Source of the DNA: a virus
Strand: one strand, 5' to 3'
Length of the DNA: 64,000 nucleotides
IMG/VR virus record: IMGVR_UViG_3300028416_000485
The notes beneath the pieces were generated by a model. That model was not told the DNA's origin. It searched no databases and saw nothing but the letters and a program-made list of their open reading frames with translations. The translations under genes were made by a program, and so were the position numbers. This document shows, piece after piece, positions 1 through 27,655 of the stretch (positions are counted from its first letter, which is position 1; the number at the start of each line of letters is the position of its first letter).

Positions 1-38
1 TGGAATATCCAAGGAATGGGACAAAATGTGTTTGTCAT
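1..38 (-). CDS. Radical SAM protein, N-terminal fragment (continues beyond window)
   Basis: Not in ORF track. Reverse strand from ATG at 38 reads MTNTFCPIPWIF, matching the N-termini of neighbouring rSAM genes (TFCNLPWMH, TFCILPWVH). ATGA overlap with the stop of the upstream ORF. Confidence 0.7.
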   Translation of the reverse strand, partial: MTNTFCPIPWIF

Positions 39-688
39 AATATGTTCCTATCAGTTAACTGATCTTTAATCCAGTTAGCTTCCCATTGGTTTCCTTCTGT
101 ACCAAAATGTTCGCCGTCATCAACTACATATTTGTAAAACTGCTTTTCACCTAACTCAGTGAACACACTAGGAATATGAGATTCATATGATCTTCTATGA
201 TGGAAATAAAAATCTACATTATTTTTTACATAGTTTATGTAAACACGATGATCTAAATCAACTTGATCGTCGCACAATCTTTTGTAATATTCTACTCCAA
301 ACTTGTGTTTTTTGCGATCAGAATCTAAAAACTTGTTTGAAAGTATTGTTCCTGTATTAATACGGTCGACAAACTTGCCATAATCTTCCTCTAGGCAATA
401 ATAGTTGTCATATTTTTGATACATTATTTCTTTAAACTTATGAGGTTTCCACCATGTAAATCTTCCAGGACTTGTGACTTGAAAAAGTTTTACATCAAAA
501 GTTTTATCTTGCATTACTTGTTCTAATAAATGAGTATGATATGTTATAGCAGTTCCAGCTGCTGCAAAGTTATAAAATTTATGCTGAGGATACATCTTAC
601 TTAACCAAACTACCCAGTTATCAAAAACTTCTGATTTTACTCCTTGAGTCCAGCTACAACCAAATACTGCAATATTTTTAGACTTCAT
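35..688 (-). CDS. SGNH/GDSL-like hydrolase or acyltransferase
   Basis: Block I-like FGCSWTQG, block II-like NFAAAG, C-terminal DGEH (DxxH). Start moved to ATG 688, which has GGAG upstream. Confidence 0.6.
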   Translation of the reverse strand: MKSKNIAVFGCSWTQGVKSEVFDNWVVWLSKMYPQHKFYNFAAAGTAITYHTHLLEQVMQDKTFDVKLFQVTSPGRFTWWKPHKFKEIMYQKYDNYYCLEEDYGKFVDRINTGTILSNKFLDSDRKKHKFGVEYYKRLCDDQVDLDHRVYINYVKNNVDFYFHHRRSYESHIPSVFTELGEKQFYKYVVDDGEHFGTEGNQWEANWIKDQLTDRNIL

Positions 689-1862
689 ATTTTTTAAACT
701 CCGGTAATACATCATACAGATTTTGACCACGACTTTGGTCTAGTTGTTTACTATAATAATAGAATTTTTCTAGTTTGTCAACCCAGTTCTCAGCATTCAT
801 GTAGTCAATAACTCCTTGGACTTTATCTATATGTGTGTAGTTAGATAATGTTTTTGTAACTTGTGCTTTTAGTTCCTGAGGTAATACTCTTATATTTAAC
901 TCCTCAGGATGATTTAATATATTTAGATAAATTTTATGTCCAAACGGTTCTGCCCAATCTAAAAACTCATGCAATCGTGTTATGTTGTACATCTGTACTG
1001 TGCAATGTATTTCATTTACTACGTTATCCAACTGTCGTACTTTTAAAAAGTTTTCTTCAACTTTATTCCAGTTACTAGGATAACGAATATATCTATCCAA
1101 ATCTCCTATTGCATCAATACTTACATTACATTTTATTGCTTTAAATTCTTTCCATTTTTCTAATAGATAGTTTGGAATATTTGTTAGATTAGTGTTATAT
1201 TTTATTTTTACTTTTTTTGCACGGCCCGACTCTATTATTTTATCAAGTATAAATTCATGATCTTTAATAATAGTAGGTTCGCCGCCTGTAAGGTATACTT
1301 CTTCGATAGTTGGCAAAAAGGCATCAATATTTCTTTCATACTGTGTATACCGATACCAGGGCCAGGTTTCGCCACCAAGTCTTTTCATTTCGTCATCAGG
1401 TAAAGGATCATTAACCAAATGCCATTCATCTAACCATTGATTACTAGCATAAGGATTGCACATACGACATTTGAGATTGCACATATTTCCTAATCTAATA
1501 TCTGCATATACTATGTTTAGTTCGGGGGTTTCTGTATATTCTTTATCTTCTAGCCACCTATCCATCCATGACTGACGTAAACTTTTTATACCAGAGTCTT
1601 CTTCTTTCCAACAACGTGAACACATTTCCGGACGTTCGCCAGCTAACATTTGTTTACGTAGATTTACATAATCTGGGCTATTCCAAACTTTGTCAAGTGG
1701 CACCTTGCCCATTTTATAAGGTTTGCCAGTTTCAGGATCTTTGATGAAGTTTTTTCCAGGAGTACTGTTGCAGCAAGGACGAAAGTTTCCACTTGCATTA
1801 GTAGCAATGTGCATCCACGGAAGATTGCAAAATGTTTCTGATGGTGGTGATATCTTACTCAT
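678..1862 (-). CDS. Radical SAM protein with N-terminal Twitch/SPASM-like Cys cluster (class A)
   Basis: CNLKCRMC, TGGEP; N-terminal FCNLPW..PCC..CSRC. Confidence 0.92.
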   Translation of the reverse strand: MSKISPPSETFCNLPWMHIATNASGNFRPCCNSTPGKNFIKDPETGKPYKMGKVPLDKVWNSPDYVNLRKQMLAGERPEMCSRCWKEEDSGIKSLRQSWMDRWLEDKEYTETPELNIVYADIRLGNMCNLKCRMCNPYASNQWLDEWHLVNDPLPDDEMKRLGGETWPWYRYTQYERNIDAFLPTIEEVYLTGGEPTIIKDHEFILDKIIESGRAKKVKIKYNTNLTNIPNYLLEKWKEFKAIKCNVSIDAIGDLDRYIRYPSNWNKVEENFLKVRQLDNVVNEIHCTVQMYNITRLHEFLDWAEPFGHKIYLNILNHPEELNIRVLPQELKAQVTKTLSNYTHIDKVQGVIDYMNAENWVDKLEKFYYYSKQLDQSRGQNLYDVLPEFKKYEV

Positions 1863-2628
1863 CTGAGTTTATTCCAAGTTTGTTGATTAAATGAGTTGCT
1901 AATAACTCATGTGTGTATTCTTTAAAATGTCCTTGCGGATATATGTCTTTTTTATTATTAGTTCGTTTACTATAGTCGTCAAGTGTTGTTGTGTTAAATC
2001 GTAAATCTTTTAGTGCAACGCCCGGCTTATAAGTGTTGGTGGTATTTACTACATCTATCATATGCACTTTAGGATACATTGTCTTTATCATATGATATAT
2101 TCCTGCATTTGCTGCGCTCCAAAAGTAATCGCAAGGCCCGTCTAACAACATCATTTTGTGTAGTTGTTGTAAATGTTTTTGTTTGTGTGTTTTCATCCAG
2201 TTGAGATTGCGGTTGCCGTCCCAACGTTCTTCGTCAAACATAAATCTGTAAATGTGTGTATAACCAACAAATACAATATCATTGTCCCAGTCTATATGCT
2301 TTTCACGAACAACACTTAGCTCGTGTAAGGCTCTATCAGCACCTGATCCTCGTATTGCATGATTACACAGTTCGTATCCTAGTGACTCTGCAACTTTTCC
2401 TGCATATGACAAATGCTTTTCTTCTTGTAGTAGATCTGTAGTTTTATACAATTCGTCAAGCAAATCTGCCCAGTCATTTCTTACTCTACCAAGGTGTTTG
2501 TCGGGCACTTCCCAAATGTTTGTTGTGCCTGCATTTTCCAGCATCCATTTATCAGGATCTACATATTTAGACACTCCTAGTTCTGTTCCTAGTGTGTGAC
2601 TACAACCAAACGCCCAAACTCTACTCAT
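1855..2628 (-). CDS. SGNH/GDSL-like protein
   Basis: FGCSHTLG, NHAIRGSG, C-terminal PQGHF; same motif layout as 35..688. Confidence 0.55.
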   Translation of the reverse strand: MSRVWAFGCSHTLGTELGVSKYVDPDKWMLENAGTTNIWEVPDKHLGRVRNDWADLLDELYKTTDLLQEEKHLSYAGKVAESLGYELCNHAIRGSGADRALHELSVVREKHIDWDNDIVFVGYTHIYRFMFDEERWDGNRNLNWMKTHKQKHLQQLHKMMLLDGPCDYFWSAANAGIYHMIKTMYPKVHMIDVVNTTNTYKPGVALKDLRFNTTTLDDYSKRTNNKKDIYPQGHFKEYTHELLATHLINKLGINSDE

Positions 2629-3829
2629 AATATAAATCCTTTAAATAATCAAATTCTGTGTAGTAATCAAACAAACATTTGTTATTAACTTTATCCTGTG
2701 CTCGCATCCATTTAACAAATGTGTGATCAAATTCTGCGTTTACAGGTTTGTCTAGCCATTTTATTATTTTTTCTACACTCTGTGTTGCATGGTGTACTAG
2801 TCTGTTAGATGCATGTTGTTTTGTATATTCTAATCCTATATGACAGCGTTCTCTTATTACGTCTTTGAGATTATCTGGTAAGTTACAAATATCCATTACT
2901 CCAGGGTATTGTACAAAACTAACGTGCAATCTACTGTCTAGTTCTGTCCAAAACTTTAACACTTCATCTATCTTAACAGCATTAAGTACATTTACAGTAC
3001 AAGTAGCATGTAAGTCTAGTTGCTTGTTTTCTATTTGAGTCGACATCTGTGTTTTTACAGTGTTCCAGTTTTCTACAAGTTTATCTAAGTTGCCACCTTC
3101 ACGCAAGTATTCGTATGTGCTAGGATCTGAATCTACACTTACTCTACATATAACTCTTTTGTACAATGGCCAATGTTCTAATACATTGTTTAGATAGTGC
3201 AAGTTTGTACTATATTCAAGTGTGATATTTTGTGCATATGGCTTTAATACTTCCAACATTTCATGATGCATCGGGTGCATCAACGGTTCGCCGCCTGTTA
3301 TACGTATCATGTTTAAGTTAGGTGCAAAACTTTTAAGTTGTTGCATAGTATCTTCGGGCAACTGATTGATGCTAAAGTTTAAGCTACCACTTGAAATATC
3401 TTTTGCAACTTCATAAAATTCAGGATCTTTTTTACATTGCGTAACCCACTGACTACTAAACTTAGGACTGCAATGCCTGCATTTCATATTACACAAGTTT
3501 CCAAACCTAAACTCCATATCTCTTGGAAAGGGCGGTATTGTTAAATCTTCTACATCTTCGAGTGCTTCAACTTGTTCTGAATAATCCTCAAGCATTGTTA
3601 ATCTAGTGCTTTTGATTCCTGCTTCTTCCATTTGCCAACAACTTTTACATCCTTCAGGCTTTTCACCTGCAAGATGCTGTCGACGAAACTCTTGCCAGTT
3701 GTCGCTGTACCAAATATCCGTTAGATTAGTTGTAGTATAATCACCTAACTTTTCGTGACAACGCCAGCAAGCGGTTGCTGTTTTGTTTGGCTTTATATTC
3801 ATATGTATAAATGGCATAACACACTGCAT
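2621..3829 (-). CDS. Radical SAM protein, class A
   Basis: CNMKCRHC, TGGEP; N-terminal CVMPF..CWRC..CKSC. Start placed at ATG 3829 by analogy with paralogues. Confidence 0.92.
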   Translation of the reverse strand: MQCVMPFIHMNIKPNKTATACWRCHEKLGDYTTTNLTDIWYSDNWQEFRRQHLAGEKPEGCKSCWQMEEAGIKSTRLTMLEDYSEQVEALEDVEDLTIPPFPRDMEFRFGNLCNMKCRHCSPKFSSQWVTQCKKDPEFYEVAKDISSGSLNFSINQLPEDTMQQLKSFAPNLNMIRITGGEPLMHPMHHEMLEVLKPYAQNITLEYSTNLHYLNNVLEHWPLYKRVICRVSVDSDPSTYEYLREGGNLDKLVENWNTVKTQMSTQIENKQLDLHATCTVNVLNAVKIDEVLKFWTELDSRLHVSFVQYPGVMDICNLPDNLKDVIRERCHIGLEYTKQHASNRLVHHATQSVEKIIKWLDKPVNAEFDHTFVKWMRAQDKVNNKCLFDYYTEFDYLKDLYYE

Positions 3830-3839
3830 ACTGTACTTA
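3827..3839 (-). promoter_or_regulatory. Candidate late promoter variant TAAGTA, 4 nt before ATG (leaderless)
   Basis: TAAGTACAGTATG, identical to 13186..13198; resembles the TAAATA motifs of the structural region; no SD. Confidence 0.45.
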
Positions 3840-4949
3840 CCGTATATAATGTGCGTACATTTCAGAGATGAGCGTCTCCAAATCAACACCTCTATGCTGT
3901 TTCATATACTCAGCTTGTGTCCAAAACTTTTCTATTATTTTATCACTTGGAGTGTACATATAGTTTTCTTCTATATCCTTGATAATATTTTTTAGATCGC
4001 CTTGCTCTGGGTCTTCGGCTTGTTTTAGTTCTTCAACAATCTGTTCGAGCTTGCTAGGCTGTATTAAGTTTACCCTATACTCTTCTGGAAATCTTACAGG
4101 AGTATAAACCATATAATCAAATAAATATCCTTGTTCGTTAATAAACTTTGGTATTTGATGTATATTAAAAGATGTTACTGTCATAGTGTTAATGATTGTA
4201 AATCCTTTATCCTTATATTGCTTGAGATTTTCTTCGATTACATTCCATTCGCTTCTTGGACGTTGATAATGCAATACATCTTCTTGCCCGTCAATTGACG
4301 TTAGAAAATGCACAGTGTCAAAAGTTTTTAAGAAATCGGTTACTTCGTTGTCATATATACTACCGTTTGTTCTATATTGTATTTTTACATCTTTTGAAAG
4401 TTTACTCAAAAAGTCTAAATTTTTCTTTTTATGCAACAACGGTTCTCCGCCGGTGATTTGTACATGACGTAAGTTCGTCATTTGTGGTAGCAAATCTAAC
4501 AGTTGTGTATCATAAAAATCGTTTATTTCCGAAAGAGGCGTACTCCAGTTTTGTTCTTTTGCGATCAAATGACTCGATCCTGCGCCGCACATCACGCATT
4601 TAAAGTTACACAAGTTACTAAACTTAATATACAATGCTTCAACATCAGACGGATCAAATACTTCTTTAACAATACCTTTGTTATTAAATTCTCTAATACT
4701 ACGCAATCGAGGAGTGTCTATACCTAGCTTTTCTTTTGATACACACATTTTACACAACTCTGGAGTAATACCATTTACAGCATCTTTGCGCATTTGTTTT
4801 AGTGTATCGCCGTTTATAAGATCTTTTCCATTATGAATTAATACATGATTTTTAGGATCTAACTTATCAACATGACAACAAGGCATTACCGACCTTGATG
4901 GATTTTCTGAAATATTAATGCCGCCTGCTAGCCAACCACACTTAAACAT
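3837..4949 (-). CDS. Radical SAM protein, class A
   Basis: CNFKCVMC, TGGEP; N-terminal C..PCC..CKMC. Start 4949 gives a TGATG overlap with the upstream gene. Confidence 0.92.
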   Translation of the reverse strand: MFKCGWLAGGINISENPSRSVMPCCHVDKLDPKNHVLIHNGKDLINGDTLKQMRKDAVNGITPELCKMCVSKEKLGIDTPRLRSIREFNNKGIVKEVFDPSDVEALYIKFSNLCNFKCVMCGAGSSHLIAKEQNWSTPLSEINDFYDTQLLDLLPQMTNLRHVQITGGEPLLHKKKNLDFLSKLSKDVKIQYRTNGSIYDNEVTDFLKTFDTVHFLTSIDGQEDVLHYQRPRSEWNVIEENLKQYKDKGFTIINTMTVTSFNIHQIPKFINEQGYLFDYMVYTPVRFPEEYRVNLIQPSKLEQIVEELKQAEDPEQGDLKNIIKDIEENYMYTPSDKIIEKFWTQAEYMKQHRGVDLETLISEMYAHYIR

Positions 4950-5956
4950 CACACACCACACTTTGCTGTGCAAATACCTAGCAAACTATTTTTAAATGAA
5001 TGTGGCAAATCTTTTTTAAAAAAGTCATGATTTACAATATCTTTAAACGAATGCTTATGTAAGTTATTAAAATCTTTGCCATACAACTCGATTTTTTCGT
5101 CGAGCCATTCAAAATTGCCACGCCATCTGCTGCCTGTATGAAAACTTAAATAGCAACAAGGCCATACTTCACCCATCTGGTTTACTTGTAAATTTTTTTC
5201 TTGCTGCCACGGACATGCACTTTTTATTTTTACTAGTTGTTTCTTCTGTTCTGCATTACCAATATATTCTACAGCAGATCGCATAATATCTACTTCTTTA
5301 GCAGTAGGTGCAGTAATTGTGCCTGCAGGAAATTCTTTATATTCGTCTGCTTTATTTTCTGTAAAATAACTACGATTTAGTGTAAATGAACAAAACCCTA
5401 AACGTTTAGCCATATCACTTGCTTCTTTTAACTGATGTTTGTTATGATCAAATACTATCATTCTCCATCGTGCATCGGCGCCATGGTCCATAAATGTTTT
5501 TGCATTAGCCATTACCTGATTAAAGTCGACTCCACGGCGATAGATATGATTAGTATCTTCTAACCCGTCGATACTAAACACAACTTCCGAGTCGTTAAAC
5601 AACTGGTACACTTTTGCAAGATCTATCCAAAATTGTGTATTCCTAGCTCCACCGTTTGTATGTATTGCTAGTTTTATTTTAGGATGTATTTCATGTAGAT
5701 AGTATAACATATCAACGATTTCTGGATGACTTGTAAAATCTCCATAGTTTCCATTAAAAGTTATGAGATGCATATTACTATGTTTAGCAAAGTTACAAAC
5801 TTCTTTCCATATAGACCAAGACATATGCTGCAATTTTAATCTTGGATTTACGGGGCCGCCATTAATATTACGAATACATGAAGGACAAAAACTATTACAG
5901 TAACTTGTTACATCTATTTGTATTTGATAAACATCGGTATCATTAATTGTTTGCAT
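4949..5956 (-). CDS. Radical SAM protein with C-terminal SPASM/Twitch-like Cys cluster (class B)
   Basis: N-terminal CNSFCPSC, GNYGD in place of GGEP, C-terminal C..WPCC..CTAKC. Start 5956 gives a TAATG overlap. Confidence 0.9.
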   Translation of the reverse strand: MQTINDTDVYQIQIDVTSYCNSFCPSCIRNINGGPVNPRLKLQHMSWSIWKEVCNFAKHSNMHLITFNGNYGDFTSHPEIVDMLYYLHEIHPKIKLAIHTNGGARNTQFWIDLAKVYQLFNDSEVVFSIDGLEDTNHIYRRGVDFNQVMANAKTFMDHGADARWRMIVFDHNKHQLKEASDMAKRLGFCSFTLNRSYFTENKADEYKEFPAGTITAPTAKEVDIMRSAVEYIGNAEQKKQLVKIKSACPWQQEKNLQVNQMGEVWPCCYLSFHTGSRWRGNFEWLDEKIELYGKDFNNLHKHSFKDIVNHDFFKKDLPHSFKNSLLGICTAKCGV

Positions 5957-7101
5957 TAAAATAACTCCGGTGTTATTAGGTGTTCTAACTTGTTCCAAAG
6001 CTCGCTGTTTTTATCCATCCAGTGTTCCTTGCGTAGCTTATTTAACTGTGCATCATTTCTTAAAAACAATCCAAAGTTTCCTGGTTGTTTAATCTCGTGT
6101 ACAAGTTGTGCAAATATTTTACGATATAACACACTATAGTTTTTTTCAATATTTTGCAAGTATTCTAAAATCCAAGGTTTTACATCTTCGTGCAAGTTAC
6201 GTGGTTGCATCCACTCCGGTCCATCAACAACCACACATTCATGATACAACTCTTGTTCTATACAAAAATCTAATATTTCATGCACTTTGTTTATATTGTA
6301 TATACTAAATGCACTGTGTACATTTATATGTTTAAAATGCTGTTTGTACCAAGCAAGATTGTTGTAAACTGTGTTCCAGTTACTATCTTTACGAAGAAAC
6401 TCATTAAGCTCTCCGTAACTATCAATACTTAAATCAATATGTACTTTTTTACACTGTTGTAATAGTTCAACCAGTTGTTTGTTTGGTAATATACTTACAT
6501 TTGTTACTAGCAATATAGTCAACTGGCTAAGATTGCACTTGTTGAGTACTTTGATTAGTTTGTCTTGTTCCATCATCGGCTCGCCGCCGAGCACTTTTAT
6601 AAATCTTAAATCAGATAAATCATAATGGTTAACAATAGTGTTGTCTGTGATAATGCCTTTTGGTATTTTCCATCCAAGTTTTTTAGCATCACTGTACCAA
6701 TGTGTACTAAGTTCCGGCATACACATTCTACATTTATTATTACACACATTACTAAGAGCTAGATCGATATTTGTAAGTTTTTTTATCTTTCCTCTGCCTT
6801 CTTCTTCTGTGGGTAATCCAAAATCTCCTATAAGTCCGGCATTAATGTCAGTACGCATACTCCTAGCACTACTTTTTTCATCATCATAACATTTTTTACA
6901 GCCATGAACATACTCATCTTTGGACATTTTTTGTCTAAGATAGTTCATATATTCGTGATTGAACGGATCAGGATGTGCTACATTTAAATCGTCTGGAACT
7001 TCTTCTTCTCTAAACACACAACAAGGTCGTATTTGTCCATCAGGACGCATAGCCATGTGATGAAATGGCAATGCACATGCATATTTTGGTACACTAGGCA
7101 T
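5956..7101 (-). CDS. Radical SAM protein, class A
   Basis: CNNKCRMC, LGGEP; N-terminal CALPF..PCC..CKKC. Confidence 0.92.
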   Translation of the reverse strand: MPSVPKYACALPFHHMAMRPDGQIRPCCVFREEEVPDDLNVAHPDPFNHEYMNYLRQKMSKDEYVHGCKKCYDDEKSSARSMRTDINAGLIGDFGLPTEEEGRGKIKKLTNIDLALSNVCNNKCRMCMPELSTHWYSDAKKLGWKIPKGIITDNTIVNHYDLSDLRFIKVLGGEPMMEQDKLIKVLNKCNLSQLTILLVTNVSILPNKQLVELLQQCKKVHIDLSIDSYGELNEFLRKDSNWNTVYNNLAWYKQHFKHINVHSAFSIYNINKVHEILDFCIEQELYHECVVVDGPEWMQPRNLHEDVKPWILEYLQNIEKNYSVLYRKIFAQLVHEIKQPGNFGLFLRNDAQLNKLRKEHWMDKNSELWNKLEHLITPELF

Positions 7102-19423: not shown

Positions 19424-19429
19424 TAAATA
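19424..19429 (+). promoter_or_regulatory. Late promoter motif TAAATA
   Basis: GATAAATAC upstream of SD GAGGA and ATG 19453; the same motif precedes structural genes. Confidence 0.6.
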
Positions 19430-19452
19430 CTAGAGAAGAGGAACCAACAAAA

Positions 19453-20868
19453 ATGACCGATTTTATACCAGGTGAAGCATACCGACTAGATATTATTACA
19501 GCAGACGAAACAGTTATTGTTGATAGCTGGCAGGGACAGATTAAAGCCAGTGTTGTTGATGTTGACGGTATTATATTAGTTGATGTTGAAACTGGAAACT
19601 TGTATGGTTCTTTGATTGGAACCATTGAAGATACAGAAGGTAATACTATTTTATCTTCCACAGGCAATCTAACTGGTAGTGTTACTGGTAGTGTATACGA
19701 CGACAACGAGGGGTTAGCATTTGATGGTGATACTGGATTGGTTATTGCTGATGTTGTCGGAAACATTGTAGATAGCAATGGCGAAGCTATTGTTAATACT
19801 GGAGCAAGATCTATTAATGCCGACAGTATTACTGGATCGTTTTACGGTGAGCTTACAGGAAGTATAACTGCTGATAGTGTAATATACGGTACATTTAACG
19901 GTGACTTTAATGGTACTAGCTACGGAGATTTTTTCGGTGATACTACAGGTACACATACTGGTGAAGTAATAGGCGGAGTAACTGGAGACGTAACAGGCAA
20001 TGTTACAGGAAATCTTACTGGAGAGTTACTTGCTATACAGCCAGGCGATGATATTGCTACACGACTAACTGGACACAACAATACTGGTGGATACGATCAA
20101 TGGGAGTTTTACGGTGGACTTGCTCATCCTGTTTATCCTGAAGATGATGCAGTTGCAAGAGGTCCTATAGTTAATATTGGAGCAACTAGAGCTGACACAG
20201 AAGTAAGAGCCAACTTAAATCATTACGATGGCACACCGGTAATGAGATTGTCCCTGGAAAGCTCGCCAACTTACAAAGCTGATTTTATGGGAAGACTTGT
20301 TGGAGCAGTTGCATATGACACACAAGGCGAAGATGGATTTATTAATATTGTATCAGGTTCAAGCAATGGAACACTTATTAGTGGTGTAAATGATAAGGTA
20401 AACATTGGTAATGAAAATGACGAAGTAAATATTATTGCTGATAGTTTAAGTATACAAACTGACTCGATTGACTCTCTTGCACACAGAGGCGAAGGCAATT
20501 CTAAAACATCATTATTAAACAATGACGAACTATTAAGTATCGAAAGCTGGGGATACAACGGTACTGAATACAAACGTGGTGGGCTTTTTGGATTTAAAGT
20601 TGACGGGACACCGGCTGCAACTGGAAATACTATGCCGTCAAGTTTTGGTATACAACTAAGTTCAGCGTCTAATACACATGTTACAAATACAGAAAATAGA
20701 CTAGAGTTCAACAACAAGGGCGTATTAGAAGTTCCAGTATTTAAAGCTAGAGGTACTACATTTGCTGACAGAGATAGTATGACAGCAGAAGCAGGTATGA
20801 TATTGTTTAACACTAGTAATAACAAGTTCCAAGGATATACCGGAACAACATGGGTTGACTTACACTAA
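19453..20868 (+). CDS. Fibre-like virion structural protein
   Basis: G-x-x-x repeats (GDVTGNVTGNLTG); C-terminal GMILFNTSNNKFQGYTGTTW module typical of phage fibre proteins; late motif upstream. Confidence 0.6.
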   Translation: MTDFIPGEAYRLDIITADETVIVDSWQGQIKASVVDVDGIILVDVETGNLYGSLIGTIEDTEGNTILSSTGNLTGSVTGSVYDDNEGLAFDGDTGLVIADVVGNIVDSNGEAIVNTGARSINADSITGSFYGELTGSITADSVIYGTFNGDFNGTSYGDFFGDTTGTHTGEVIGGVTGDVTGNVTGNLTGELLAIQPGDDIATRLTGHNNTGGYDQWEFYGGLAHPVYPEDDAVARGPIVNIGATRADTEVRANLNHYDGTPVMRLSLESSPTYKADFMGRLVGAVAYDTQGEDGFINIVSGSSNGTLISGVNDKVNIGNENDEVNIIADSLSIQTDSIDSLAHRGEGNSKTSLLNNDELLSIESWGYNGTEYKRGGLFGFKVDGTPAATGNTMPSSFGIQLSSASNTHVTNTENRLEFNNKGVLEVPVFKARGTTFADRDSMTAEAGMILFNTSNNKFQGYTGTTWVDLH

Positions 20869-20883
20869 AAAATATGCTATAAT
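20855..20883 (+). promoter_or_regulatory. Sigma70-type promoter
   Basis: TTGACT-N17-TATAAT with extended -10 TG; SD AGGAG before ATG 20921. Confidence 0.75.
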
Positions 20884-20920
20884 GATAACATATTAAAAAG
20901 TCTTCAAAGGAGAGTAAAGT

Positions 20921-21139
20921 ATGTTATTTGATTGGAAACATTTAAAAAAAGCAAATACTAACTATTTTACACATTGTTTTATAGCAATATGTTATAGTTT
21001 TTTGGGACTTGGTATTTTTATAATGGGCATATTACACGCATTTTTTCCTTTTATGTTTGGATTTACACCTTACAAGATTGCTAAAAAAATCACCGACGGT
21101 ACTGAAAAAAACTTTCCTGCTTGTATCAACGAGAAATAA
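20921..21139 (+). CDS. Small membrane protein (DUF6356-like)
   Basis: HL....NYFTH followed by a hydrophobic helix and LHAFFPF; strong SD. Confidence 0.55.
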   Translation: MLFDWKHLKKANTNYFTHCFIAICYSFLGLGIFIMGILHAFFPFMFGFTPYKIAKKITDGTEKNFPACINEK

Positions 21140-22201
21140 ATGAAAATTTTTATAGACGGTGAACAAATATCCGAACAATGGATAAGCGATTACACACTAA
21201 GTAATCCTGTGAATTGTTACAGTAACAACCCAGACTGGGAACAGAACGTTCTTAAACTATTACACAACTGGTATTGGCAAAATGGATATAGCTATGGCTA
21301 TAGAGGTGATCAGTTTCTTAATCTAAGTACTAGCGGTACAACTGGATTTCCGCAGGACATTGGACATACCAAAGAAACCATAGAACAAGTTGTAGATGCA
21401 AATATTAAAACACTAGGGTTAGATAAAAATAGTAAAATACTCAGTTACTATTCTCCTCGCGGTATTGCGTTTAGTGTGCTAAGTGTATACCTTGCATTAA
21501 AACTAGATTGCGAACTATACATCGAAACATTCAAAGGCATTGACTATGTAAATCGTGTACACGAAATACGTCCGACACATACATTATTATTACCCAATGT
21601 TTGGAAAGTATTACACAAACACGATAGATGGAAGACACTAGATTATAGTAGTTTAGAAACTGTTATTACAGGAAGTGATTTTACACCAACAGGTATGCTG
21701 GACGAGCTACGTGAGCATAATCCAGGAAAAGTATACAATGTATACGGTAGTACTGAAGTACCTCCTATGGTGTTGTACAGCGAAGAAGAAAATACATATA
21801 CTATAGATAGTATTACTCCGGGTGCAGAAGTTGATATTGTAAACGGGCAGATTGCTTGCAAATGGAGTAGTCAATCTAACATATGGATTAGTGGTGACTG
21901 TGTTAACGGTGACAGAAATAGATTTACAATTAACGGACGCAAACACAATATGTTTAAACAAAATACTATCAGAGTATACCCTGAACAAATAGAAAAAGCG
22001 GCCGTTGCAGCTGGTGCAGAACTTGCATTATGCCAACAAATTAAAAATCAGTGTATATTATATTATACAGGCAATATAAAAGATATGGCAAATTTTGTAG
22101 AACAACATCGATATATTCCAAGATTTAGACTTCGGGCAGTAGATAAAATAGAAGTAGATAATAATCTAAAAAAGATTATAAGGACGCAAACATTTGTATA
22201 A
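21140..22201 (+). CDS. Short adenylate-forming (ANL/AMP-binding) enzyme
   Basis: TSGTTGFP (A3 P-loop), YGSTE (A5), SGD (A7), GRK..MFK (A8), C-terminal KK (A10). Confidence 0.8.
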   Translation: MKIFIDGEQISEQWISDYTLSNPVNCYSNNPDWEQNVLKLLHNWYWQNGYSYGYRGDQFLNLSTSGTTGFPQDIGHTKETIEQVVDANIKTLGLDKNSKILSYYSPRGIAFSVLSVYLALKLDCELYIETFKGIDYVNRVHEIRPTHTLLLPNVWKVLHKHDRWKTLDYSSLETVITGSDFTPTGMLDELREHNPGKVYNVYGSTEVPPMVLYSEEENTYTIDSITPGAEVDIVNGQIACKWSSQSNIWISGDCVNGDRNRFTINGRKHNMFKQNTIRVYPEQIEKAAVAAGAELALCQQIKNQCILYYTGNIKDMANFVEQHRYIPRFRLRAVDKIEVDNNLKKIIRTQTFV

Positions 22202-22808
22202 ACTAGAAATGTATAATGGTACACAAGATCTAACAGATTTTTATAAAGGTGCTGCTGCTAAAGGGTTTTATAACAATCATAATAAAACTGTGTTAATAGA
22301 TTATATTAACAAACACGAAAATGCAAACTTATTTTTATTATACTATGGAGATAATATTGTAGGCACTAGTGTGAGCCATAGTTTGCAACAGTTAGGCATA
22401 CTAGGAAAAAATGCACATAGAATAAGTGCTAGAACATGTGTATTAAATGATATAGTTGACGGGGAACGTGCCCATGCTGTACACAACTATCGACACTCTC
22501 CTATGAATCATTGGACTAGTCAAATGCTTACGCCTGTGTGTATGCACTATGTTGGATTAGAAAATCCTCAATATATTAGTACAAATACATTAGAAACTGG
22601 AAGTCAAAGTAAAGTACATCGCATATGGTCAAAGATTATGCACAACCAAGGATATTTAAAAGATCCTATAGAGTTAGAGTACAAAGGAACATTTCAAACA
22701 TTTTGGAAAGTTGACGTTGATTTTTATATGAAAAAACTAGAAGAAAATATGTGGCCTGAAACTAAACAAGCACTAGACGTATTTCTTACAAAGTTCAAAA
22801 AAGTCTGA
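22194..22808 (+). CDS. Putative GNAT-fold acyltransferase
   Basis: LFLLYYGDNIVG beta-hairpin then RISARTCV; coupled to the ANL gene. Fold call is weak. Confidence 0.4.
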   Translation: MYKLEMYNGTQDLTDFYKGAAAKGFYNNHNKTVLIDYINKHENANLFLLYYGDNIVGTSVSHSLQQLGILGKNAHRISARTCVLNDIVDGERAHAVHNYRHSPMNHWTSQMLTPVCMHYVGLENPQYISTNTLETGSQSKVHRIWSKIMHNQGYLKDPIELEYKGTFQTFWKVDVDFYMKKLEENMWPETKQALDVFLTKFKKV

Positions 22809-24146
22809 CATCTCTGGAAACACTTGTTCGTGATCAACATTACGTCTACGCCCTTGTTCTTCAAAGAAGTTGTGGAAGTCTCTACGTCCTTGAATAACTT
22901 TATCTAGTGGATATTCTGTAGATTCCATGTAATCAACTACACGACGAAACTTTTCATACTCGATAGTGCTAAATGCATCCTTGCGATTATCATCTGTGTT
23001 CTCTTTGATAAACTGCAAATGGTCGTGCATATAACTCATGTAGTTTTTAGGCAGGATATTGATATCATACTGTAGAGGTTCTTTGAGATGCGGAGTATCA
23101 AACCCTAGTCGTTGCCATCTGTGCGTTTCTACATCATTGTATTTTTTACGCCATTCAAGAATCTTTTCAAGCAATGTGCGGAATGTAGTGACACTGAAAA
23201 TATTAAATGTAATCATAATAACCATTGGTGCTTCACAGTTGCGCATAAAGTAATCTAAGTTGCGTTCAAACACTTCAATGTCTAACCCATCACGAATATA
23301 CTCTGCACGTTTGCCCCAAGTGTCAATACTTGTAAACATTTTAAAACGTCTAATCTTGTTGTTTGTCAACAAGTCATTCACACGGTTTGTAAACTTTTCC
23401 AACTGCTTTGGCTTGCCACCTAAGTTGCTGTTGCAGTTTAGTTCTAACTCTGGTTTAGGATCTGCATCCAGCATATCAAACAACTTGTATGTGCTTTGTT
23501 GTATTGTAGGCTCACCGCCTGTAATACGCAAAATATGCAAGTCCTTACTAAGCTCTGGCCACCATTTCCAAAATGCATCTAAATACGGATTGCTTTGTTC
23601 TTCAAATATTTCAAACCAGTCAATATCGCATCTGTGATTCTTTACGTTTGTATAAGGACCGTGTTGCTTGATCTCTTGATGATATCTACTGCTGGCTTTT
23701 GGATGACAATATCCACAACGGAAGTTGCACTCATTACCAAACGAAACTTCCAAGTATTCTGGATTAACATCAAACTCAGCACCGCCTTCTTTGACAGCTT
23801 TCAAGCGTTCTTTGAAAAAGATAGTTTGATTGCGTTGTTTTCTATCACTAACATAGTCTTTGCCCATTGCTTCAATCTTCCAGCAATAGTTGCATCCACT
23901 AGGTTGTTCACCTTTCATCATAGCAGCACGTTCTGCTTTCTTTTGTGCTGTATTGTGTATAGCACTAGGATTCTCTAATAGCGGTGCTGCGTCAATCTTG
24001 TGAGGAGCAGGATGATAACAACTATGTGTTTCACCTGTCTGAAAATAGATGTTTGCATGATACCACTTGGCAAAGCAAAACGTAGGAGATATTTCCTGCG
24101 TAATCTTATCGATACGCTTGATTTCTTCGCTTTCGCTGCGTTCCAT
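22773..24146 (-). CDS. Radical SAM protein, class A
   Basis: CNFRCGYC, TGGEP; N-terminal FCFAKW..SCYH..CNYC. Confidence 0.92.
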   Translation of the reverse strand: MERSESEEIKRIDKITQEISPTFCFAKWYHANIYFQTGETHSCYHPAPHKIDAAPLLENPSAIHNTAQKKAERAAMMKGEQPSGCNYCWKIEAMGKDYVSDRKQRNQTIFFKERLKAVKEGGAEFDVNPEYLEVSFGNECNFRCGYCHPKASSRYHQEIKQHGPYTNVKNHRCDIDWFEIFEEQSNPYLDAFWKWWPELSKDLHILRITGGEPTIQQSTYKLFDMLDADPKPELELNCNSNLGGKPKQLEKFTNRVNDLLTNNKIRRFKMFTSIDTWGKRAEYIRDGLDIEVFERNLDYFMRNCEAPMVIMITFNIFSVTTFRTLLEKILEWRKKYNDVETHRWQRLGFDTPHLKEPLQYDINILPKNYMSYMHDHLQFIKENTDDNRKDAFSTIEYEKFRRVVDYMESTEYPLDKVIQGRRDFHNFFEEQGRRRNVDHEQVFPEMSDFFELCKKYV

Positions 24147-25069
24147 TATTGTTCTCTATCTAAGAATTGTTTGCTGTTATCACGTGCCGGATTTTTGTAT
24201 ACTGTTTTAAAAAATAGACTTTGATTTCCATCAAGTGGTTCAGCAGCAATAGGCAACTCAAGTTCGTCTATCAGTGAATACCCAAGTCCAACAGTTTCTA
24301 TTTCCATATGGTCTTCATCCATATCTTTGCTATCCCAATACTCATTGAGCCAATCAAAATCACGTACATTTACAAAGTCCCAGTCTGTACACATTGTCTT
24401 GTACAATCCTTCTCGTGCGCCGTAGATAGCCCAACGGCCGTTCTCAACATCTGCACCAATCATTAGCCAGATGTACAAACGGTGCAAGTTCTTCCAGTGA
24501 TTTTTATGAAAGTCCTCTACACTAACACGCATGCCTTGATCCAGTGCCATTTTAACACCTTCTCTAAATCCAGCACGCCATGCTTGATGCGGTGTAGCAT
24601 TATTCATAATAGTACTGTATGTACCATTCATTTGTATGTACTGTGTATCCCAACAGAAATCTACTTGTGCATGTGGATTATCGTTGGGTGCATTTTCGTG
24701 TGTACGCATGTTTAATACATGTTGTTTGGGCCAGCACTTAATGCCGCCATTTCCGTATGTAAGATTATTGATACTATTAAGTGCAGTCCAACTAATAACT
24801 TTATTAGTCAAATCTGTATTTTCATCAAAGTCCATTGTTTGCGACAAAAACTTTTCATCAATAATATTGTCGCCGTCTATTGTAATAAACCTATCAGTAG
24901 TTGATTTGTTAGCGGCTGCTTTGTGTGCGCTATCACTGCCTTTTACACCATGCACACGCTCTGCCCACGGAACTTTCTTACACAAGTCTGCATAGTTTTG
25001 TTCTGCATTAGGCTCGTCGTATGACAAATATATAATATCGCAATCAATAACTCTAAATGTGTTAGCCAT
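24146..25069 (-). CDS. Glycosyltransferase-like protein (GT-A type)
   Basis: DIIYLSYDEPNA..HGVKG..AH..TIDGD (DxD)..GNGGIK..AWRAGFRE. Confidence 0.65.
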   Translation of the reverse strand: MANTFRVIDCDIIYLSYDEPNAEQNYADLCKKVPWAERVHGVKGSDSAHKAAANKSTTDRFITIDGDNIIDEKFLSQTMDFDENTDLTNKVISWTALNSINNLTYGNGGIKCWPKQHVLNMRTHENAPNDNPHAQVDFCWDTQYIQMNGTYSTIMNNATPHQAWRAGFREGVKMALDQGMRVSVEDFHKNHWKNLHRLYIWLMIGADVENGRWAIYGAREGLYKTMCTDWDFVNVRDFDWLNEYWDSKDMDEDHMEIETVGLGYSLIDELELPIAAEPLDGNQSLFFKTVYKNPARDNSKQFLDREQ

Positions 25070-25604
25070 TTATTTCCTCATAATGATAAGTATCAAACCT
25101 ACGCATAGTATATACTGAAACTTCTTCGTTGTCAAACTCAAAATCATTTTCAAACGCTACTTCATCTCCGTTATTAAAACGTATTAATCGATACAATACA
25201 TTTGGGTCATCTTTTTTTGTTATACTAAAGTAGTAGTTTGAAAGATCGATTGTAACTTTTTTATCATTTAAATCTTCTATAAAACCAGGATCAGCAGATA
25301 TTTTCCAAACATGTTTTACATTATCTTTAGTTAATACTATTTGTTTGTTATTAGGTACAGTTCTAGGAATCTGATATAGAAAACACCACATCAGCTTGTC
25401 CTCGTCGACTTGTGTCTGGTTTTTAATATAATATTTTTTATCTATAAAATCATATTCAACCTTGTAGTCTAATAAACTCCAATGTCCTTCTATAAACTTC
25501 TTAACATCTTCAAAGTCGCACTCAAGAAACTTAAATCTGTCATCAGATTCTTTTGAGATTTTATAAATATTTCCATCGTCATCAAAACATACAAATCGTT
25601 TCAT
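25062..25604 (-). CDS. Hypothetical protein
   Basis: 180-aa ORF coupled within the GT operon. Confidence 0.7.
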   Translation of the reverse strand: MKRFVCFDDDGNIYKISKESDDRFKFLECDFEDVKKFIEGHWSLLDYKVEYDFIDKKYYIKNQTQVDEDKLMWCFLYQIPRTVPNNKQIVLTKDNVKHVWKISADPGFIEDLNDKKVTIDLSNYYFSITKKDDPNVLYRLIRFNNGDEVAFENDFEFDNEEVSVYTMRRFDTYHYEEING

Positions 25605-25605
25605 A

Positions 25606-26448
25606 TTATATTCCTAAACATTTTTCATATTTTTTCATTAAACTATTATTTAAGAAATCTTTTTCAGTGTAATGAAAAATGCCCGATTGCTGATGATTTC
25701 CTATTTTTAGCCTCATATCACTGTCAAAATAAACACCAACTCTATCTTGCCAACGATATGCAAAGTTAATGTCCCAACCTTGAATCTTTGGTTTCATATG
25801 TGTAAATGTAGGATTCTTAACTTTATTGTTTGTAATCAAATGTTCAATGTCCATTATTTTACAAGCAACTGCTGCGCTAACATCCATGCTTGGACGCAAT
25901 GCAAACTTTTTTCCAGAACTAGCTGATTTATAAAACTGTTCCCAGTTGTTTGTTATCATTTCAAGCCAAGTATAAAACTCATGTGCTAAGTCAGATTTCT
26001 TAAACCAATGGAGACCACTATACAAGTTTGGAAGATTGTATTTTTTGAACGCTTTACGATAATAGTTGTCATCTACTAGTTCTCCACGGTATGTATACAC
26101 ATTGCTAGTGTAAAATAAATCATAGTTTCTTAAGAAATCAAACCAACTACTAATGTCTTCAAGTATTAACATATCTGTATCTATCACCGCAGTTTCGTTA
26201 TACGGAATAGCATGATATATTTTCCAACGATTGCTGATTTTCCAATCTTCATCCTTGGCATGATCTCCCCACGGTATTTCAACGATATGATCAAACAAAT
26301 GTTTGTATTTTGTAGGCACACTTTCATTAGTGATAAGACAAATACTAACATCTTTGTTTGTAGCATGAATACTCATTGCTGCTAAACATGCTTGTCTAAC
26401 ATAATCAAAACCACTGTTTTGTGCCAGCATTGTAAAGTTATTGGTCAA
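25606..26448 (-). CDS. Glycosyltransferase (GT8/mannosyltransferase-like, GT-A)
   Basis: Y...A...AMSI, PY.ET..IDTD (DxD), SG..WFKK, FTHMK. Confidence 0.7.
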   Translation of the reverse strand: MTNNFTMLAQNSGFDYVRQACLAAMSIHATNKDVSICLITNESVPTKYKHLFDHIVEIPWGDHAKDEDWKISNRWKIYHAIPYNETAVIDTDMLILEDISSWFDFLRNYDLFYTSNVYTYRGELVDDNYYRKAFKKYNLPNLYSGLHWFKKSDLAHEFYTWLEMITNNWEQFYKSASSGKKFALRPSMDVSAAVACKIMDIEHLITNNKVKNPTFTHMKPKIQGWDINFAYRWQDRVGVYFDSDMRLKIGNHQQSGIFHYTEKDFLNNSLMKKYEKCLGI

Positions 26449-27259
26449 TAATTCTCTCCAAACTAAACTTGTTCATCACATGACAGTTACTACCTTTGAG
26501 ATTTACAGCAGTGTATTCTCCAAGTCTTTTATTTTTTTGTACTAGTATTTTTATTTCATCGTCTTTAATCCCAACAGCTACGTCTTTGTCTGTTGCATAA
26601 AACTTTGTTCCTGGCAAACTTCCAACAAAGTTTCCTGTTTGATATCCATTCATAATATGTACTGCAATACTAAAAGCAAAATCGTTTCTATATACACTTG
26701 TTTTAAACTGATACATATTACGATAGTGTATATAGTTTTCTTCAATGTGCTTGATCAAATCAAAGAACATTTTGTTTTCATCTGTTTTTCTAAAAAAGAT
26801 TACAGTAGCCCAATAAAAATCTACACTAGTATCACTTACTTTTTCAAACTCGGGTACTATTCTATGCATTCCAACATGAGTAGCATCCTTGTATAGCAAA
26901 AGATCTTTTTGCTGTACAAAGCAGTTGTTTAGTAAATCATTGCTAATGATATAATCAGTATCCATTACAATAGTAGAATCGTAAGGAGTTAACTCATATG
27001 CAGATGCTCTGTTTTTATTATTAAACTTTAATGTTTTATCACTAAAATCGCCATCGGCATATCGTTTACTAGTACTATTTTTAGTCATGTCATCGGAGTG
27101 AATAACATAATCAAATACATCAGATTCGATATCTATATCTGTAACAATCGAAGTGGGCAAGTCCATATACTTGCGTATGCGTTTAGCAAGGAAAATAGCT
27201 TGCTTTACATAATCAACTGATTTATTATTACTTGCGAATAACAATACACCCTTTGTCAT
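26438..27259 (-). CDS. Glycosyltransferase (GT8-like, GT-A), paralogue of the downstream gene
   Basis: YVKQA..LAKRI, TPYDSTIVMDTD (DxD), RNDFAFSIA, HVMNK. Confidence 0.7.
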   Translation of the reverse strand: MTKGVLLFASNNKSVDYVKQAIFLAKRIRKYMDLPTSIVTDIDIESDVFDYVIHSDDMTKNSTSKRYADGDFSDKTLKFNNKNRASAYELTPYDSTIVMDTDYIISNDLLNNCFVQQKDLLLYKDATHVGMHRIVPEFEKVSDTSVDFYWATVIFFRKTDENKMFFDLIKHIEENYIHYRNMYQFKTSVYRNDFAFSIAVHIMNGYQTGNFVGSLPGTKFYATDKDVAVGIKDDEIKILVQKNKRLGEYTAVNLKGSNCHVMNKFSLERIIDQ

Positions 27260-27603
27260 AAATCCATAATACTTTCAACTGTTCTATTTGTTTTTAACTT
27301 ATTATATTCAGTTAAGTATTTGTTTGTTGATTGCCAATACACATTTACGAGTTCATTGGCAAAATCTTGTAATACTTCTATTTCAATAGGTATACCACTA
27401 TCATCAACTAATATAGTTTCAGTTTGATGTAGTGCCAATAAACTTTGACAAAAACTTATAAGATCTTTTGTTACAGAAAACTGACCACCATTAAAATAAT
27501 AAACAAGATTATCGTGGTACTGTTCTTTTAACAAACGTTTTTGATTATTTAAAGTAATCATGTAATTGCTAAAATCTAATGCTTTTTCTAAGCGTTCGTC
27601 CAT
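27256..27603 (-). CDS. Hypothetical protein
   Basis: 115-aa ORF with SD AGGAGA; first gene of the GT operon. Confidence 0.75.
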   Translation of the reverse strand: MDERLEKALDFSNYMITLNNQKRLLKEQYHDNLVYYFNGGQFSVTKDLISFCQSLLALHQTETILVDDSGIPIEIEVLQDFANELVNVYWQSTNKYLTEYNKLKTNRTVESIMDL

Positions 27604-27626
27604 AAATATCTCCTACTTGTAATAGT

Positions 27627-27655
27627 AGTATATATGCTTTAGACTACATTGTCAA
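27627..27655 (-). promoter_or_regulatory. Sigma70-type promoter for the GT operon
   Basis: TTGACA-N17-TATACT. Confidence 0.75.

Follow-up and report, generated by a model that had tools for sequence, protein, structure and literature searches.

Positions 1-27655 of the IMG/VR virus record IMGVR_UViG_3300028416_000485, a 64,000-nucleotide stretch of phage DNA that we refer to as the window, hold an island of glycosyltransferase (GT)-like and radical S-adenosylmethionine (rSAM) genes that follows a tail-fibre module. The best-supported and most likely reading of this island is a cytoplasmic system that builds a glycan and tailors it by radical chemistry, in which the rSAM enzymes are predicted to act on sugar. 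For the specific form of this reading, a phage system at the far end of the fibre module that assembles and tailors a glycan, with virion proteins slightly favoured as its acceptor, we estimate a probability of roughly 0.35. Every gene class named in a preliminary description of the sequence is present, with unequal support: the rSAM assignments come from Pfam and NCBIfam, the GT assignments from profiles and folds, the PP-loop proteins give weak hidden Markov model matches, and the methyltransferase (MTase), short-chain dehydrogenase/reductase (SDR) and SGNH-like assignments come from sub-threshold matches and motifs. Relatives were collected by a search with the GT-A family, which gave more than 586 IMG/VR loci, and the best 80 were compared with each other and with RsoM2USA, a cultured jumbo phage of Ralstonia from soil (MG752970, 344 kb).

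The window contains four GT domains, two GT8-like (25606 and 26438) and two GT-A (24146 and the C-terminal domain of 17728-19374).

26438-27259 (-): GT8-like glycosyltransferase with a DTD motif; paralogue of 25606-26448; in 77/80 loci; 37% identical to its RsoM2USA counterpart
25606-26448 (-): GT8-like glycosyltransferase with a DTD motif; AlphaFold2 (AF2) model with pLDDT 94; in 78/80 loci
24146-25069 (-): predicted GT-A (GT2-like) glycosyltransferase with an invariant DGD; model pLDDT 88.6; 45% identical to RsoM2USA ORF350
17728-19374 (-): 548-aa protein with three degenerate GT-A-like modules and a complete C-terminal GT-A domain (DGD), from Glyco_tranf_2_3 and alignment

Since none of these proteins scores above its Pfam threshold, they were examined by profile and by fold. 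A joint profile of 25606 and 26438 (62 sequences) matches glycogenin with E 9e-7 over positions 3-106, and in the underlying alignment D92 is invariant and D90 nearly so. The top Foldseek matches to the GT8-like AF2 model are glycogenin, LARGE1 and UGGT, all at E ~1e-7 (glycogenin E 9e-8, probability 1.0; TM-scores of just 0.4-0.55). Because neither 25606-26448 nor 26438-27259 has a Pfam match down to E 10, Glyco_transf_8 included, we call them GT8-like rather than members of GT8. The 24146 family aligns with the C-terminal domain of 17728-19374, and the DGD motif (D65, D67) is invariant; the latter protein matches Glyco_tranf_2_3 at 19.7 bits, below the cut-off of 27, and 24146-25069 has no Pfam GT2 match. 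Residues 3-173 of the 24146 model give VIA Z-scores of 10.2-8.0 to many GT-A enzymes, among which B4GALNT1, STIV A197, SunS and SpsA score 10.2-8.8, and Foldseek places the SunS/ThuS peptide S-glycosyltransferases on top, PBCV-1 A64R also being among the matches. As nucleotidyltransferases with the same fold score Z ~8, we infer glycosyltransferase chemistry for 24146-25069 from its DxD motif together with the top matches to its model. Single-sequence PDB searches of 24146 and 25606, and a PDB search with the GT-A family profile, returned no match. The nearest structural neighbours of the GT models are largely protein- or peptide-directed or viral enzymes (glycogenin, UGGT, LARGE1, SunS, PBCV-1 A64R and STIV A197). 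The description of four DxD GT-like genes after the fibres is borne out in fold (GT8 and GT-A) and motif, and fails on contiguity, as the third gene is parted from the fourth by a twitch rSAM gene (22773-24146) and, on the opposite strand, a cassette of 3.4 kb (19420-22808).

In the portion of the window from 1 to 27655, twelve intact rSAM genes lie within 1-24146, eight with an N-terminal twitch domain and four of the classic/SPASM type (Pfam and NCBIfam).

678-1862, 2621-3889, 3837-4973, 5956-7128, 9593-10927, 11791-13188, 14246-15421 and 22773-24146 (-): the eight N-terminal-twitch rSAMs, from alignment and NF033640
4949-5998, 7632-8786, 13185-14249 and 15418-16497 (-): the four classic / C-terminal SPASM rSAMs, from Pfam and C-terminal Cys-rich regions
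22773-24146 (-): N-terminal-twitch rSAM right after the GT-A gene; NF033640 299.5 bits; homologues in 34/80 loci
15418-16497 (-): rSAM with a C-terminal Cys-rich domain, core member of the array; Radical_SAM 28.9 bits; orthologues 46-96% identical in 35/80 loci
13185-15421 (-): rSAM pair, N-terminal-twitch 14246-15421 and classic/SPASM 13185-14249
11791-13188 (-): most conserved N-terminal-twitch rSAM; NF033640 421.8 bits
7094-8786 (-): rSAM and SDR-like pair; 7632-8786 has Radical_SAM at 38.2 bits; orthologues in one relative (L003) are 72% and 74% identical
35-7128 (-): five rSAMs (5956-7128, 4949-5998, 3837-4973, 2621-3889 and 678-1862) interleaved with two SGNH-like paralogues; Pfam, NCBIfam, alignment

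All twelve proteins carry CX3CX2C, the motif of the SAM-cleaving [4Fe-4S] cluster, and eight exceed the Radical_SAM (PF04055) cut-off of 29.5 bits, the others (13185, 14246, 15418 and 22773) scoring 19.5-28.9. Four of the eight twitch proteins were scanned with NF033640 ("twitch domain-containing radical SAM protein", cut-off 170 bits), and all four exceed it (678-1862, 387.2; 2621-3889, 272.7; 11791-13188, 421.8; 22773-24146, 299.5); the other four were assigned by full-length alignment and the same Cys pattern. Mutual identity among the eight is 21-33%, with invariant C9, C27, C90 and C93 as well as C146, C150 and C153, and their Pfam SPASM matches fall at residues ~10-90, before the Radical_SAM matches. 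Positions 4-77 of the eight-paralogue profile resemble the C-terminal twitch domain of BtrN (residues 165-259; E 6e-6), so that the comparison with twitch enzymes such as BtrN made in the preliminary description holds at the level of the domain. BtrN is a twitch rSAM that acts on a carbohydrate, and the shared element is an auxiliary-cluster twitch domain with four Cys; in BtrN, however, this domain is C-terminal, whereas in the window family it is N-terminal, a permuted order. The rSAM core of the window proteins is no nearer to BtrN than to SkfB, MoaA or viperin, and a single-sequence PDB search of 11791 gave no match.

The N-terminal-twitch family comprises 7,654 clusters at 50% identity (E <= 1e-30, tandem fusions included). 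Many of the top library matches to its profile (P0121-P0148) are proteins of 750-1400 aa with two or three full units in tandem, which indicates that the paralogue arrays are sometimes fused into single polypeptides; three fused or extended proteins showed no informative extra Pfam domain, only a faint TPR. As a tentative broader proposal, less probable than the reading of the island itself, the family may constitute a large and so far unrecognised group of radical enzymes that tailor carbohydrates; marine giant phages would then string up to ~16-19 of them behind four GTs to make hypervariable, radically modified glycans on tail fibres or the surface of the infected cell. Such a means of glycan diversification would be without known counterpart in viruses or cells.

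The association of these genes is conserved. The best 80 loci keep the order 35234, 33249, 31326, 29751, 28814, 27256, 26438, 25606, (25062), 24146. Downstream rSAM genes were counted in the loci with at least 5 kb downstream (n=58), within the available stretch; they lie directly after the GT block in 48 of the 58, with 0-10 per stretch, and inside the fibre module in no locus. The quartet 17728-16701-16490-15418 comes directly after the GT block in many marine loci. In RsoM2USA, ORF347-354 have the same order and encode proteins 31-45% identical to those of the window: a 123-aa protein, GT8, GT8, a 185-aa protein, GT-A, an N-terminal-twitch rSAM (ORF349, 34% identical to 22773-24146 and in the same position), GT-A and an MTase-like protein, in overlapping genes. 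This version is minimal, with a single rSAM in the block and none of the PP-loop, SGNH or SPASM members. Recurrence in 80 IMG/VR loci and in RsoM2USA places the arrangement far from chance. The proposal that GT, rSAM and fibre genes would prove linked in related phages is upheld, since the fibre/GT block is present in essentially all 80 loci, rSAM genes follow in most informative ones, and the set is compact in RsoM2USA. The ancestral arrangement is continuous: a 115-aa gene, GT8, GT8, GT-A, twitch rSAM, GT-A and a gene for a SAM-transferase-like protein.

The operons of GT and rSAM genes are tightly packed, and their genes overlap. Fusions of 17728-type with 24146-type GT-A proteins occur in three loci (L048, L049 and L062), and a further one (L082) adds an MTase-like domain. 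Within or beside the islands of relatives we find a UDP-Glc/GDP-Man dehydrogenase (six loci and one further contig), a NodU/CmcH-type carbamoyltransferase (several relatives) and genes for Asp_Arg_Hydrox (LpxO-type) and TauD oxygenases. An NDP-sugar 4,6-dehydratase adjoins the RsoM2USA block (PMC8504454), and the ORF356, ORF359 and ORF361 products of RsoM2USA, encoded upstream of and adjoining the block, are virion proteins by mass spectrometry (PMC8504454). The genes of the RsoM2USA block are all annotated as hypothetical, and the record of Vibrio phage K566 likewise consists mostly of hypothetical proteins. RsoM2USA has a second N-terminal-twitch gene (126846-128228, L009), 35% identical to 22773-24146 and ~90 kb from the GT block, and none of its neighbours resembles a window protein. 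KVP40-like phages such as K566 (161548-168284, L007) have three to four clustered rSAMs of this type, 20-28% identical, without the GT block, and a PagP-like lipid A acyltransferase gene lies ~3 kb from the K566 cluster. The island of the window itself runs past the left edge: there it goes on with three to four more rSAMs, Asp_Arg_Hydrox, nitroreductase, and aldehyde dehydrogenase or TauD/SET, and contigs with an identical 678-1862 protein differ in these left-hand cassettes.

In bacteria the family is rare, found in 4/400 further Bacteroidota, 2/400 further Pseudomonadota and 0/14 control genomes, and where present its genes are mostly in tandem arrays. Neighbourhoods were looked at in six genomes. 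On one Bacteroidota chromosome four N-terminal-twitch genes are flanked by a GDSL gene on one side and, on the other, by an MTase-GT2 fusion with GT-C genes after it; G574 has a GT2 gene 2 kb away; a GDSL-like gene lies 4-6 kb away in G285 and <6 kb away in G081; and G503 and G308 have no GT2 or GDSL match on the same contig. SGNH/GDSL and MTase genes, often with GT genes, thus recur beside the family in bacteria, a combination also seen in the phage. One G081 locus (L108, G081:C2:1208000-1227900), on another Bacteroidota chromosome, looks like an uncharacterised tailoring cluster. Along with two divergent N-terminal-twitch genes and five for PhyH-type 2-oxoglutarate oxygenases, it has an MTase gene, a halogenase-like gene of the WelO5 type, a GDSL gene and genes for a reductive-dehalogenase-like Fe-S protein and for a fibre-like protein secreted by the type IX system that carries a Peptidase_S74 (fibre chaperone) domain.

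Promoter-like sequences separate the island from the genes before it.

28813-28785 (-): sigma70-like promoter ahead of 27657-28766, unlike the other fibre-module genes
27627-27655 (-): sigma70-type promoter of the GT block, TTGACA-17-TATACT, in a 53-nt gap and 24 nt before the 115-aa gene
25135-25107 (-): sigma70-like motif ahead of the GT-A gene 24146-25069
20855-20883: promoter in the opposite-strand (ANL) cassette
19382-19410 (-): sigma70-like promoter of the large rSAM operon (TTGACT-17-TATAAC), 8 nt ahead of its first gene

Upstream of orthologues of the 115-aa gene, the motif is found in 42/66 distinct loci, compared with 1.2% in background and 0-2% for fibre families. In a relaxed form (last -10 base T or C) it occurs nine times in the window. 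Six of these copies precede a gene start by no more than 38 nt, of which four belong to the island (28813, 27655, 25135 and 19410), one to the ANL cassette and one to an SbcCD-like operon. It precedes no baseplate or fibre gene, apart from 27657-28766 of the fibre module. As the -10 element at 19382-19410 ends 8 nt before the ATG of 17728-19374, this mRNA would have little or no leader. The T4-type late promoter TATAAATA shows no enrichment in the window (4 found, 11.9 expected), and a generic promoter scan equals shuffled sequence (63 versus 63.4), so that only the stricter motif, taken with position and conservation, is informative. Because the island has conserved sigma70-type promoters of its own that are absent from the fibre genes, it is not simply part of a late fibre operon; judged by these motifs, the host's RNA polymerase, itself unmodified, would transcribe it early or midway through infection, apart from the late fibre genes. 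Eight loci (L025, L031, L037, L050, L051, L053, L056 and L057) are without the sigma70-like motif and have a conserved TAAATAGTTATAC...AACTAGGAGTATAACTATG upstream of the 27256 orthologue, possibly a different class of promoter.

Taken together, the nucleotide-sugar enzymes of relatives, the bacterial GDSL/MTase-GT2/GT-C arrays and the GT-A/MTase fusions support glycan building with radical tailoring. In such a system, the soluble GTs would use nucleotide sugars in the cytoplasm to assemble an oligosaccharide, on which the SAM-transferase-like, SGNH-like, short SDR and QueC-like PP-loop enzymes may add or alter methyl or alkyl, acyl, keto or hydroxyl, and amide or nitrile groups. Each of the diverged rSAM paralogues would contribute a single radical reaction at a sugar residue (for example oxidation, epimerisation, deoxygenation, C-methylation or the joining of two carbons), and gain and loss of rSAM cassettes would make the product hypervariable between close phage relatives. 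The acceptor may be virion proteins, for example those of the adjoining fibre module, by analogy with the glycosylation of virions in mycobacteriophages and chloroviruses and of the fibrils of mimivirus. It is the position of the island, these viral precedents and the protein-directed structural neighbours of the GT models that favour virion proteins. The systems that glycosylate virions in mycobacteriophages and chloroviruses (PBCV-1 A64R), and the fibrils in mimivirus, likewise use soluble viral GTs, often with MTase and sugar-pathway genes, near structural genes. The window block, a candidate for such a system, has sigma70-type promoters of its own instead of being co-transcribed with structural genes. 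None of the viral systems is known to include rSAM enzymes.

Several observations weigh against this reading. None of the four GT-like proteins passes its Pfam threshold, and the window has no recognisable nucleotide-sugar synthesis gene. The NF033640 family has no characterised member or known substrate, and the solved rSAM cores closest to the eight-paralogue profile are those of ribosomally synthesised and post-translationally modified peptide (RiPP) maturases (TvgB-like 8VPO and SkfB) and of a lipid enzyme, GDGT-MAS. In ten of the 58 relatives the GT block comes without any rSAM gene in the available stretch; the ten are from one subgroup, and in them the block runs straight into a DNA-metabolism module (ThyX, exonuclease). 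The family's context in G081 has no GT and includes the five PhyH oxygenases and the halogenase-like gene, and the sigma70-type promoters are no less compatible with a role early in infection (modification of the host or of DNA, for instance) than with decoration of virions. The preliminary proposal that the set builds and hypermodifies a glycan consequently stands in part: GT folds, synteny and the nucleotide-sugar enzymes of relatives speak for it, whereas the separate promoters and the rSAM-less relatives speak against its simple form.

It is also quite possible, if less probable, that the same enzymology serves a different acceptor, a host envelope glycoconjugate (lipopolysaccharide (LPS) core or O-chain, capsule or surface glycoprotein), with early remodelling acting against superinfection or the loss of progeny on debris. 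The conserved sigma70-type promoters fit this, as they otherwise mark non-structural units in the window such as the SbcCD-like operon, and LPS-core alpha-glycosyltransferases also belong to GT8. The bacterial array followed by GT2 and GT-C/PMT_2-type genes suggests a polyprenyl-phosphate route to periplasmic acceptors, and the LpxO-type Asp_Arg_Hydrox in relatives' islands and the PagP-like gene near the K566 rSAM cluster point the same way. An envelope target has also been proposed for GT8 and rSAM cassettes in the host-recognition clusters of pelagimyophages (PMC7029224). Promoter type, the GT8-LPS link, the bacterial GT-C context and the pelagimyophage proposal thus favour the host envelope. 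The island, however, is without flippase, polymerase, ligase, polyprenyl-phosphate GT or membrane GT, and a host acceptor leaves the strict conservation beside the fibre genes unexplained and has no obvious need for such extreme cassette variability.

The pelagimyophage host recognition cluster (Zaragoza-Solas et al. 2020, PMC7029224) is among the closest parallels to the island by description, being a hypervariable region of marine myophages that brings together tail-fibre genes, GT8-type genes and rSAM cassettes, the last of which are gained or lost between close relatives; modification of the host O-chain is the authors' proposal only (PMC7029224). Pelagimyophages are T4-like with genomes of ~140-170 kb, whereas the window phage belongs to a jumbo lineage with contigs of up to 353 kb, and the cassettes are likened by description.

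We consider it improbable that the rSAM array instead modifies a protein or peptide in a RiPP- or proteusin-like manner (cross-links, epimerisation, methylation or hydroxylation), the fibre module offering candidates, with the GTs glycosylating the same protein. The closest solved rSAM cores are indeed peptide maturases, 8VPO (a cyclopropyl synthase; PMC10878394) and SkfB. The classic rSAMs match metalloenzyme or peptide maturase models weakly, Asp_Arg_Hydrox and TauD oxygenases accompany the array in relatives, G081 joins N-terminal-twitch, PhyH and MTase genes beside the secreted fibre-like Peptidase_S74 protein, and SunS/ThuS head the Foldseek matches of the GT-A model. Against this, no precursor-like gene was found in the island: its overlapping or abutting genes leave no room for small open reading frames (ORFs), and the sole small one, of 74 aa, shows conservation from end to end. 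No Pfam RRE/PqqD, protease or exporter match was found among the island proteins scanned, and the nucleotide-sugar enzymes and GT/MTase fusions of relatives point to sugar chemistry.

Hypermodification of phage DNA or of nucleotide precursors against restriction (7-deazaguanine elaboration or base glycosylation) is a good deal more doubtful still. It would account for the early-type expression that the promoters suggest and for the two QueC-like PP-loop proteins; these proteins fall short of the QueC model, however, and neither the window nor the relatives' islands scanned contain a DpdA, hydroxymethylase, DNA kinase or DNA-binding module. General scans of window proteins gave no match to the DpdA, FolE, QueD, QueE or QueC families, the bacterial contexts of the N-terminal-twitch family are not DNA-related, and GT8/GT-A proteins together with UDP-sugar dehydrogenase, carbamoyltransferase and SGNH genes resemble polysaccharide or glycoprotein chemistry. 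Just as doubtful is a free small molecule (aminoglycoside-, nucleoside- or glycolipid-like) acting on the host or on competitors: although the enzyme set is like that of a biosynthetic gene cluster (rSAMs, ANL ligase, carbamoyltransferase, oxygenases, nitroreductase and aldehyde dehydrogenase), the G081 cluster has halogenase-like and PhyH genes, and Campylobacter phages and a cyanophage pair rSAMs with amidinotransferases (PMC2853527, PMC12801897), we recognised no exporter, no resistance gene and no enzyme that would form a scaffold, and the fixed position after the fibre genes is left unexplained.

The arrangement bears on a question raised by phage CP220 in 2010, namely why some phages carry a dozen or more rSAM genes. 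The Campylobacter phages CP220 and CPt10 have 11-12 such genes of unassigned function (PMC2853527), and a marine T4-like environmental viral genome (EVG), TARA_ERS488813_N000010, has 12, also unassigned (PMC5332604). These genomes share with the window phage the number of rSAMs (11-12 per genome) and their organisation in interchangeable modules. The match to CP220 is weak, however (24% identity to one of its rSAMs), and descriptions of the CP220 and EVG clusters mention amidinotransferases or Fe-S assembly genes but no GT block after the fibres. rSAM-rich phages have thus been known since 2010, and the combination of GT8 with rSAM cassettes is known from pelagimyophages (PMC7029224). New here is that the conserved GT core also occurs in a cultured jumbo phage; new, too, are the evidence on promoters, fusions and neighbourhoods in bacteria, as well as the assignment of most of the rSAMs to NF033640 with a BtrN-like permuted twitch domain; rSAM arrays are now tied to a conserved GT operon with host-type promoters at the end of the fibre module. 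The minimal eight-gene version in cultured RsoM2USA makes the question testable at the bench. As the rSAM family is very large and without known function, assigning a substrate would annotate thousands of genes, and it could reveal new sugar chemistry relevant to the host range of oceanic phages.

Between and beside the GT and rSAM genes, the island encodes a number of smaller or more divergent proteins.

27256-27603 (-): 115-aa protein, first gene of the GT block; in 73/80 loci and as RsoM2USA ORF354
25062-25604 (-): 180-aa protein inside the GT block; in 32/80 loci; no family match
19420-22808 (+): opposite-strand insert with a fibre-like 482-aa protein, a 72-aa membrane protein, a short ANL adenylating enzyme and a 204-aa protein
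16701-17744 (-): SAM-transferase-like protein; 24-aa repeats at the N-terminus, class I-like domain at the C-terminus; RsoM2USA ORF347 is 31% identical
16490-16714 (-): 74-aa protein overlapping both neighbours; conserved end to end in an alignment of 28 distinct orthologues
8776-11801 (-): two QueC-like PP-loop ATPases (10920-11801 and 8776-9600) flanking the N-terminal-twitch rSAM 9593-10927; motifs and weak matches

Pfam at E 10 and PHROGs returned nothing useful for the GT-like, MTase-like, 115-aa, 180-aa, 74-aa and 204-aa proteins. The 115-aa protein has no family or PDB relative, its family profile giving only chance-level helical matches in the PDB. For 16701-17744, a family profile (29 sequences) matches the class I MTase MJ0882 with E 0.004 and spermidine synthase with E 0.15, Pfam finds nothing and all Atlas leads are <=0.80; from such weak matches methyl and aminopropyl transfer are indistinguishable. 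The 74-aa protein was considered as a RiPP precursor and ruled out by its full-length conservation without a variable core (28 distinct orthologues). In the PP-loop pair, SGGADS is invariant across both paralogues and two orthologues, and a C-terminal C-x28-C-x2-C-x2-C (C219, C248, C251 and C254) is present, with a spacing wider than that of QueC. The PP-loop region matches LarE and TtuA at E 0.02-0.2 and, also weakly, PP-loop and TilS_N models; the QueC model gives no match for the window proteins, and one orthologue (L001) has a faint PF06508 match only.

The SDR-like protein 7094-7648 (184 aa) scores 16.3 bits against adh_short (cut-off 26.6) and E 1.6e-6 against YdfG, far under the cut-off of that model, and the motifs ITGNKDTGVAG and YNAEK are readable in its translation. 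The SGNH/GDSL-like paralogues 35-730 and 1855-2628 (-) have the blocks FGCS.T.G and N.A..G in common; the first matches DUF1574 at 25.9 bits (cut-off 29.1) and the second has no family match. The ANL enzyme of 19420-22808 matches AMP-binding with E 4e-18, and as this segment is present in only 2-8 of the 80 loci, it has been inserted into an operon that is otherwise continuous.

Upstream of the island, the phage genome is structural.

27657-35836 (-): fibre module, from PHROG tail-fibre and virion structural matches and a Collar domain; order kept in the 80 loci. It contains a 200-aa protein, three fibre proteins with a common N-terminal domain, the 305-aa protein 28814-29731 and its paralogue 27657-28766

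The source is an uncultured jumbo myophage, whose baseplate and fibre proteins lie at 35234-59661 (-) (PHROG matches). The best listed matches of its baseplate wedge protein (1154 aa) are in Atu_ph07, SCTP-2, PA5oct and Rak2-like phages (32-36% identity); that of RsoM2USA is also among the phage matches, and every match is <60% identical, in keeping with a distant relationship to Atu_ph07, PA5oct, Rak2 and RsoM2USA. The phage is abundant in marine metagenomes: rSAM 11791-13188 has >2000 homologues, the best 120 of which are 80-89% identical, on contigs that reach 353 kb, many of them from Tara samples, and 215 blocks of the assembly collection list the exact 678-1862 protein. We rejected a host assignment from the labels of metagenome-assembled genomes (MAGs), since the Crocinitomicaceae and Neisseriaceae contigs (L094 and L095) carry near-identical phage genes and are probably mis-binned phage DNA; such labels are probably at most a weak hint about the host. 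The rSAM genes of these two contigs are 74-85% identical to those of the window, and one MAG has 15 N-terminal-twitch matches over several contigs.

Three successive fibre proteins at 29751-35234 (-) (661, 640 and 511 aa) have an N-terminal region of ~90 aa in common (phrog_14394/15511) and differ in their C-termini, so that they look like candidate alternative receptor-binding proteins on one attachment domain. The same N-terminal region is found in RsoM2USA ORF355. The Ser/Thr/Gly-rich 369-aa protein 27657-28766 (-) is present in 11/80 relatives and is a paralogue of the 305-aa 28814-29731, which is universally conserved. Between the baseplate wedge and fibre genes, a 4540-aa ORF (35863-49485, (-)) has an FG-GAP repeat match (E 2e-14) and a weak CBM5/12 match, and is probably a giant fibre or adhesin; its position is comparable to that of the 2541-aa RsoM2USA ORF361, which adjoins the baseplate wedge gene ORF362. 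At the right of the window, the divergent operon 59686-63407 (+) has a consensus sigma70 promoter, TTGACA-17-TATAAT, ahead of it. Its products are one protein of 276 aa and two more, of the Metallophos and AAA_23/SMC_N types, that resemble the SbcCD or gp46/47 recombination nuclease.

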